5,025 nt of DNA from a virus (taxonomy: Duplodnaviria > Heunggongvirae > Uroviricota > Caudoviricetes). Numbering within the stretch: position 1 is the first letter of the stretch; each line of letters begins with the position of its first letter. Of this stretch, positions 610 to 777 are shown piece after piece. Location: the IMG/VR virus record IMGVR_UViG_2681813313_000011; one strand, given 5' to 3'. The notes beneath the pieces are model-generated. The model searched no databases, was not told the origin of the DNA, and saw nothing but the letters and a program-made list of their open reading frames with translations. The position numbers were made by a program, and so were the translations under genes.

Positions 610-777
610 TCAAGCATTATGCAGGCTGTTTCTTTTTATCACCGGCCACAGCAATACCATAATGCCGCAGACCAGCACTCCATCCGCCAGCACCGACATG
701 ATTCTGCTGGTGAAATCCACCATCACCACCAGAAACAGCAGGAGTGCAGCCACAGTCAGGCGCAGTTTTACCGTCAC
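610..777 (-). CDS. Hypothetical small membrane protein, 55 aa from GTG (37 aa if from ATG at 723), two predicted hydrophobic helices
   Basis: Translation MTVKLRLTVAALLLFLVVMVDFTSRIMSVLADGVLVCGIMVLLWPVIKRNSLHNA. GTG start overlaps the TGA of the upstream TerB-like frame (GTGA), with GGAG 8 nt upstream. Contains rare codons AGA (x2) and ATA. Not in the ORF track because the ATG-initiated version is below the size cutoff. Confidence 0.4.
   Translation of the reverse strand: MTVKLRLTVAALLLFLVVMVDFTSRIMSVLADGVLVCGIMVLLWPVIKRNSLHNA

Follow-up and report, generated by a model that had tools for sequence, protein, structure and literature searches.

Phage P1 carries, in its C1-repressed ban operon, a TerB-like gene of about 141 codons, tciA, which is directly followed and overlapped by the small gene tciB (P1_gp075, YP_006541.1; 54 amino acids, ATG start) and then by a third small membrane gene, tciC (35 amino acids). 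All three were found to be non-essential in a CRISPRi screen of P1 (PMC10695390). A second described relative, TciB of phage 434 (UMO75333.1), belongs to the same family, as do its counterparts in related lambdoid phages such as 2B8. In 434 the gene lies between Q and the gene of a SASA esterase, upstream of a class II holin; there, however, the gene preceding it codes for a 247-amino-acid membrane protein instead of TerB, and stop and start codons do not overlap. With respect to TerB itself, an interaction with the integral membrane protein TerC has been reported (PMC11003894), and in DjlA, where a TerB-like domain is combined with a J domain and a TM helix, it is the TM helix that tethers the TerB-like domain to the membrane (bioRxiv 10.1101/2024.08.29.610257). 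Our literature search found no experimental study of any TciB or DUF3927 protein, and the only mention of DUF3927 that it returned was in a figure legend.

Here we analyse a 55-codon open reading frame in a 5,025-nucleotide stretch of viral DNA (the window; IMG/VR record IMGVR_UViG_2681813313_000011). A first-pass annotation, made from the letters of the DNA, had proposed this frame as an unannotated membrane-peptide gene coupled to a TerB-like gene. We conclude that it is almost certainly the lambdoid-prophage orthologue of P1 tciB, and a coding frame that is conserved and under selection. The best explanation overall, to which we assign a probability of roughly 0.6, is that of a P1-tciB orthologue residing in a cargo cassette, with TciB acting as a putative membrane partner of TerB. 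Neither the gene nor its family nor the pairing with TerB is new: all are covered by the P1 genome annotation, Pfam, PHROGs and RefSeq, with a record that goes back to the P1 annotation, and the discovery value of the locus as such is small.

A cargo cassette in the late region of a lambdoid prophage

The window covers the part of a lambdoid E. coli prophage in which the regulatory region gives way to the late genes, and all of its identifiable genes are on the minus strand (Table 1). In the direction of transcription, the first to come are hokD with the sok RNA, a hypothetical gene, a DUF968/HNH gene, rusA and the gene of the late antiterminator Q; these are followed by three tRNA genes, the TerB-family frame, the small frame under study, an sRNA of the STnc100 family, a terminator-like hairpin and the beginning of a DUF1737/SASA esterase gene. 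In a near-identical RefSeq locus (L001), the sequence continues past the esterase with a class II holin and a lysozyme. Judged from its position relative to the Q gene, the cassette belongs to the late, Q-dependent transcription unit, and the late-gene placement given in the first-pass annotation thus stands.

Table 1. Features of the window around the tciB-like gene, listed in the direction of transcription.
Feature	Position	Strand	Evidence
Late antiterminator Q gene	1838-2533	-	Pfam Phage_antiter_Q, E 9.8e-93; RefSeq
CAT-anticodon tRNA; tRNA-Ile according to RefSeq	1550-1625	-	ARAGORN, Rfam, RefSeq
tRNA Arg(tcg)	1466-1542	-	ARAGORN, Rfam, RefSeq
tRNA Arg(tct)	1376-1452	-	ARAGORN, Rfam, RefSeq
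terB/tciA-like pseudogene	774-1206	-	Internal stop in translation; alignment to intact copies; PGAP flag; Pfam TerB and PHROG 632 on fragments
GGAG, Shine-Dalgarno-like, inside the last codons of the TerB frame	786-789	-	Read from sequence
GTGA stop/start overlap of TerB-like frame and tciB	774-777	-	Read from sequence
tciB-like CDS (DUF3927 family), 55 amino acids, GTG start, TGA stop at 612-610	610-777	-	ORF list, Pfam, PHROG, RefSeq
STnc100-family (PasD-related) sRNA	433-605	-	Rfam RF02076, 100.8 bits against a gathering score of 47, E 6.8e-22
Intrinsic-terminator-like hairpin closing the tciB/sRNA segment	390-408	-	8-bp stem with 7 GC pairs, then T8
5' end of DUF1737/SASA sialate-esterase gene (nanS-p type), the next late gene	1-295	-	Pfam DUF1737, E 1.3e-16; RefSeq 'SASA family carbohydrate esterase'

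The placement of the cassette, between Q with its three tRNA genes on one side and the nanS-p esterase and lysis genes on the other, is that of the stxAB slot of Stx phages; in one Stx phage, the esterase gene is immediately preceded by the stx1 operon. A promoter-like site, recognized by consensus match only, is found immediately after Q (1854-1826, minus strand), and beyond it lies a short GC hairpin plus T-run (1745-1770), which is where pR' and tR' would be expected; in a simple scan, this hairpin received a terminator score only on the plus strand. At the other end of the window lies a complete hokD/sok type I toxin-antitoxin locus (4393-4717, minus strand; Hok/Gef domain with E 1e-22, sok RNA with 110 bits). 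A sub-threshold match to an isrK-like RNA (4303-4384, minus strand; 27 bits against a gathering score of 50) is located just upstream of a 135-amino-acid ORF at 3947-4354, where RefSeq lists only a hypothetical protein of 92 amino acids.

The open reading frame is a conserved coding gene

A mechanical ORF finder recovered the 55-codon frame with exactly the translation that had been proposed. Its GTG (777-775) overlaps the TGA of the TerB-like frame (776-774), and GGAG is positioned 8 nucleotides ahead of the GTG. The window holds 65 ORFs of at least 30 amino acids, among which a frame of this length is unremarkable by itself, and the case for a gene therefore rests on homology and conservation.

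Residues 3-51 of the protein align with positions 2-50 of the 53 in Pfam PF13064 (DUF3927; 60.4 bits against a gathering cut-off of 25, E 1.7e-16), and PHROG 1470, 'TciB-like', is matched over positions 1-54 of 54 (E 1.8e-29); no NCBIfam model matches the protein, and a PDB sequence search returned no match for TciB or for P1 TciA. The description of the frame as unannotated did not hold, since RefSeq/PGAP has the exact CDS under the name 'DUF3927 family protein' (WP_000216649.1), with coordinates that agree in near-identical genomes. Under this name the exact 55-amino-acid protein occurs on at least 995 public contigs, and nothing was found in the literature under its peptide string or its accession. 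By megablast, the segment comprising TerB and the small frame is present in 807 of 5,426 complete E. coli genomes (about 15%), with a median of four copies, and in all of them the pair is annotated as 'tellurite resistance TerB family protein' and 'DUF3927 family protein'. The family as a whole has few members: HMMER, run exhaustively against 1.84 billion representatives, yielded 61 clusters at 50% identity, with proteins mostly of 49-64 amino acids.

The window protein is 48% identical to P1 TciB and about 58% identical to that of phage 434, and it has in common with the P1 protein the motif R6, VDFTS, SVL.DG.LV and WP..K. As in P1, the gene directly follows and overlaps a TerB-like frame and the cassette adjoins tRNA genes, whereas the start codon is GTG instead of ATG, the transcription unit is a Q-dependent late region instead of the ban operon, and the place taken by tciC in P1 is occupied by the sRNA.

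Conservation of the frame, the absence of which the first-pass annotation had named as grounds for abandoning a coding gene, was assessed in other Enterobacterales genera. The loci were retrieved with a pattern derived from a 7-sequence alignment; a 35-sequence alignment was too diverse to yield a pattern, and a query built on a single protein gave pattern matches among which tblastn confirmed no relatives. In 14 of the 16 loci the frame is open over 49-55 codons, and it starts at the same position with ATG or GTG, or in one case TTG; at the position matching the GGAG of the window, orthologues have GGAG, GGAA or GGAT. Comparison of tciB with these homologues gave dN/dS values of 0.1-0.5 at a dS of about 1 or above. 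In a gapless block of 49 codons from 18 non-redundant sequences, the annotated frame contains no stops and has a pN/pS of 0.41, as against 3-68 stops in each of the five other frames and pN/pS values of 0.88-1.75 in four of these. The fifth, the codon-aligned antisense frame, has a pN/pS of 0.50, as expected by symmetry. Variation at codon positions 1, 2 and 3 amounts to 0.32, 0.21 and 0.57, respectively, and is thus highest at the third. This is a coding pattern, and it contradicts a conservation that is independent of the frame.

One might still regard the ORF as untranslated, that is, as a chance open frame that overlaps the end of the TerB gene and the beginning of the sRNA region, considering that frames of this size are common in the window and that our literature search found no direct expression data. 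The comparative sequence data effectively refute this reading: conservation at the level of amino acids extends across genera and phage types, the position of the start is retained while its codon switches between ATG and GTG, no stop occurs in 18 diverged sequences, pN/pS is the lowest among the six frames, and a curated Pfam family covers the ORF. In recognizing a genuine small protein-coding gene from raw sequence, the first-pass annotation was correct; taken as a whole, its observation is partly confirmed and its interpretation partly supported.

Less came of the proposal that rare codons tie the gene to the neighbouring tRNAs. Two AGA codons (codons 25 and 49) and one ATA codon (codon 47) are indeed present in tciB, and three such codons in 55 have a probability of about 0.06 given the other genes of the window; a value of about 0.005 was obtained only against K-12 genome-wide frequencies. 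None but the closest E. coli variants have the three codons, and a homologue whose cassette is adjoined by the same three tRNAs (L026) has no AGA and a single ATA at a different position. The link is weak and specific to one lineage and, as it is neither significant against the background of the window nor conserved in homologues, we rejected it as a functional signal.

Downstream of the gene, the STnc100-family sRNA begins 4 nucleotides past the tciB stop and ends before the GC-rich hairpin with its T8 tract; it could originate from the 3' region of tciB or from a promoter of its own within tciB. The relation between PasD and STnc100, and a location upstream of an esterase gene, have been described (bioRxiv 10.64898/2026.05.13.724894). 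A 31-amino-acid ATG ORF (522-617, minus strand) overlaps the tciB stop by 8 nucleotides and occupies the position that tciC has in P1. It was rejected as a tciC equivalent, as it lies within the STnc100-family match and does not resemble P1 TciC, and it is probably non-coding.

The TerB-tciB pairing across phages

On gene order, tciB is the distal gene of a two-gene cargo cassette, in which a terB-like tciA precedes tciB. The upstream frame of the window matches both Pfam TerB and PHROG 632, which places tciB at the position that it occupies in this cassette. In P1, in phage Fostie, in 14 Enterobacterales loci and in other E. coli prophages, the TerB-like gene (141-143 amino acids) ends 1-4 nucleotides inside the tciB start, or 8 nucleotides in one locus, with TAATG, TGATG or GTGA at the junction. 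Fostie has its cassette between Q and the holin. The TerB and tciB genes of Pollock, a lytic N4-like phage, abut without overlap, and in two phages that were sampled by way of their TerB gene, ChrisDB (an Erwinia jumbo phage) and LIET2 (a Pantoea phage), a TciB-like gene comes right after TerB. Temperate phages, both lambdoid and P1-like, are thus among the carriers of the cassette, as are lytic phages of the N4-like and Erwinia jumbo types.

The pairing has its exceptions. A stand-alone TerB was found in 131 phage records; in AF and Zuri, both Pseudomonas phages, the small membrane ORF behind TerB is a different one, and among the sampled records, those of Vibrio K479 and Sinorhizobium phiM5 have a stand-alone TerB with no small membrane ORF behind it. 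We therefore regard the pairing of TerB with tciB as the rule in enterobacterial phages, though not as an absolute one.

In three unrelated types of phage, the cassette adjoins tRNA genes. These are Ile(CAT), Arg and Arg in the lambdoid case (window positions 1376-1625), Asn and Thr upstream and Ile(CAT) downstream in P1 (positions 1349-1502 and 2934-3009 of locus L004), and Trp and Cys upstream in ChrisDB (positions 86-554 of locus L109).

An intact tciB beside a broken terB

The P1 gene has its tciA partner, whereas the terB/tciA frame of the window is a pseudogene with two lesions. A GAG to TAG change at 1068-1070 introduces an in-frame amber codon 97 codons before the end, and the A-run at 1182-1188 is longer by one A, so that the ancestral ATG (1206-1204, MFGIF...) is no longer in frame. 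PGAP likewise flags the gene as a pseudogene on account of an 'internal stop'. Two intact genes, as a functional tciA-tciB pair would have, are hence not found in the window.

This bears on the coupling to the TerB-like gene that the first-pass annotation had put forward. The physical linkage is real, and the 4-nucleotide overlap is conserved; actual translational coupling, on the other hand, is doubtful here, since TerB is truncated by the amber codon and frameshifted, and ribosomes would stop 97 codons before the overlap. With TerB interrupted in this manner, translation of tciB would depend on its own GGAG and GTG. RNA polymerase modified by the Q protein of lambdoid phages resists terminators, and polarity should therefore be limited during late transcription. 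The 3' end of the broken TerB frame forms a 48-amino-acid remnant ORF (774-920, minus strand) that matches a PHROG of its own (phrog_3920, 48 amino acids, E 2.8e-34), which shows that phage genome annotations list pieces of a truncated TerB as proteins in their own right.

The same amber allele of terB is found in the O26:H11 strain 11368 and, among 80 close IMG/VR copies of the locus, in 29; 33 of the 80 have at least one internal stop in TerB, 12 have a frameshift only and 35 are intact. In 77 of the 80 copies tciB is full length; it is so beside the amber codon in the 29, which indicates that strict dependence on TerB is not required. Among the close copies, tciB has 13 non-synonymous and 9 synonymous segregating changes, a ratio of about 0.5 that indicates moderate constraint.

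Two explanations compete at this point with that of a TerB partner. According to the first, the gene in the lineage of the window is an intact but functionless remnant of a decaying cassette, terB being dead already and tciB being too short to have been hit yet. The two lesions in terB, the location of many E. coli copies in defective prophages, the only moderate constraint on tciB and the frequency of truncated variants in the databases, such as a 37-amino-acid form on 889 contigs (P0179), are all in keeping with decay. The full length of tciB in nearly all close copies, the pN/pS below 1 and the presence of the identical protein behind an intact TerB in strain UTME-3 speak against it, and we judge a remnant to be distinctly improbable.

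The second explanation holds that TciB is a stand-alone small membrane effector that does not need TerB, such as a candidate superinfection-exclusion factor, a toxic or membrane-perturbing peptide or a modulator of a host membrane protein, in which case the two accessory genes would stand next to each other because they are co-regulated, and not because their products form a complex. Phage 434, which has TciB without TerB, fits this explanation, and so do the SD-like GGAG that belongs to tciB itself and the cases in which tciB is intact although the amber codon truncates its terB neighbour, namely the window, L001, a further locus (L021) and the 29 IMG/VR copies. However, the overlap with TerB has been kept across very different types of phage, which argues for stoichiometric co-expression; the amber lineage represents a single recent event shared by descent, so that persistence of a 55-codon ORF within it proves little; and PADLOC gave no match. 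On balance we consider a stand-alone effector unlikely, albeit less so than a remnant.

Anatomy of the TciB protein and the question of lysis

The TciB family comprises proteins of 50-55 residues for which hydropathy predicts two hydrophobic segments between termini that are basic. The polar motif conserved among them, R6, D21-F22-T23-S24, S28, D32-G33 and W44-P45, is present in full in the window protein, and each of its residues prevails at its position, being shared by 23-32 of the 34 family members in the alignment. Two hydrophobic segments had been noted from the sequence in the first pass, and on the Wimley-White octanol scale, with values from the literature, two non-overlapping 19-residue segments have favourable energies, at about residues 5-23 and 29-47; the same holds for 31 of the 34 family members. 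K and R accumulate towards the two ends (1.9 and 2.2 residues on average), and the centre is neutral to acidic, a pattern which under the positive-inside rule corresponds to a hairpin with both termini inside. AlphaFold2, run with the 34-sequence alignment, instead predicts a single continuous helix over residues 2-53 (pLDDT 91), with D21, S24, R25, S28 and D32 on one helical face between 240° and 340°. The hairpin that the first-pass annotation had suggested is accordingly favoured by hydropathy and the positive-inside rule but not reproduced by the structural model; on the sequence pattern it is plausible, and the model offers a long helix, oligomeric or bound to a partner, as the alternative. 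That D21, S24, S28 and D32 share a face is what would be expected of a membrane helix that oligomerizes or binds a partner, and may also be counted in favour of a stand-alone effector.

Small size, two hydrophobic segments, a short basic C-terminus and a place in the late operon upstream of the lysis genes are features that TciB has in common with class II holins and pinholins, such as the S-type holin encoded downstream, and a holin-like protein was among the possibilities named in the first-pass annotation. Could TciB be a holin, an antiholin or a pinholin-like protein that times lysis? The genomic context makes this very unlikely. A dedicated class II holin and a lysozyme are encoded about 2.6 kb and 3.5 kb further on in L001, and tciB is not adjacent to the endolysin but separated from the lysis genes by the sRNA, the terminator and the 1.85-kb esterase gene. 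Homologues reside outside lysis regions, with P1 tciB under the control of C1 and Pollock tciB among early or middle genes, and P1 tciB is not essential (PMC10695390). Neither Pfam nor PHROGs yielded a holin match, the sole hits being DUF3927 and TciB-like, and with 50-55 amino acids the family falls short of the class II holin annotated in phage 434, which has 68 residues.

With regard to a toxin, which had also been considered, Rfam placed sok only at the hokD locus (4543-4717) and found nothing antisense to 610-777, where a Hok-like type I system would have its antitoxin RNA, and no Hok/Gef or other toxin profile of Pfam matched the ORF. A PADLOC search for defence systems returned no match for the window protein or for TciA, TciB and TciC of P1.

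Discussion

The cassette occupies a position in the late operon that in other phages serves as the cargo slot for the Shiga toxin genes, and about 15% of complete E. coli genomes carry it, frequently more than once. A defined phenotype for TciB would explain a widespread accessory module of phages, and might also clarify the role that TerB domains have at membranes.

We propose that TciB is an inner-membrane protein whose termini probably both face the inside, and that it would anchor the soluble, TerB-like TciA there or serve as its partner in the membrane. The pair would then serve an accessory function related to the envelope, to ion stress or to exclusion, as opposed to lysis, and would be dispensable for plaque formation. 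In the lineage of the window, TciB would be translated from its own GGAG and GTG and not by coupling, and may either work alone or persist as a remnant that is still intact. This mechanism is drawn by analogy from systems in which TerB-type domains meet the membrane; we put it forward tentatively and would place it somewhat short of even odds, far below our confidence in the identity and coding status of the gene.

Were TciB instead to act autonomously, which we regard as unlikely, it would be a putative inner-membrane effector that re-tunes the host envelope, with TerB/TciA serving only as its regulator. Such an effector might block superinfection or the attack of colicin-type channels, or might target a membrane protein of the host, and the conserved Asp and Ser residues within the membrane would then constitute its functional face. 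An effector of this kind would account for the many E. coli genomes that retain an undamaged TciB although the adjoining terB is dead, and for phage 434, which lacks TerB but has TciB.

For the TerB-partner mechanism, the comparison with known systems is one of mechanism and does not imply membership in a family. TciB is far smaller, has no sequence similarity to TerC or to the TM segment of DjlA, and would resemble them in what it does. In TerB-TerC and in DjlA, as in the model that we propose for TciA and TciB, a module of the TerB fold is brought to the inner membrane by an embedded partner or a tether.
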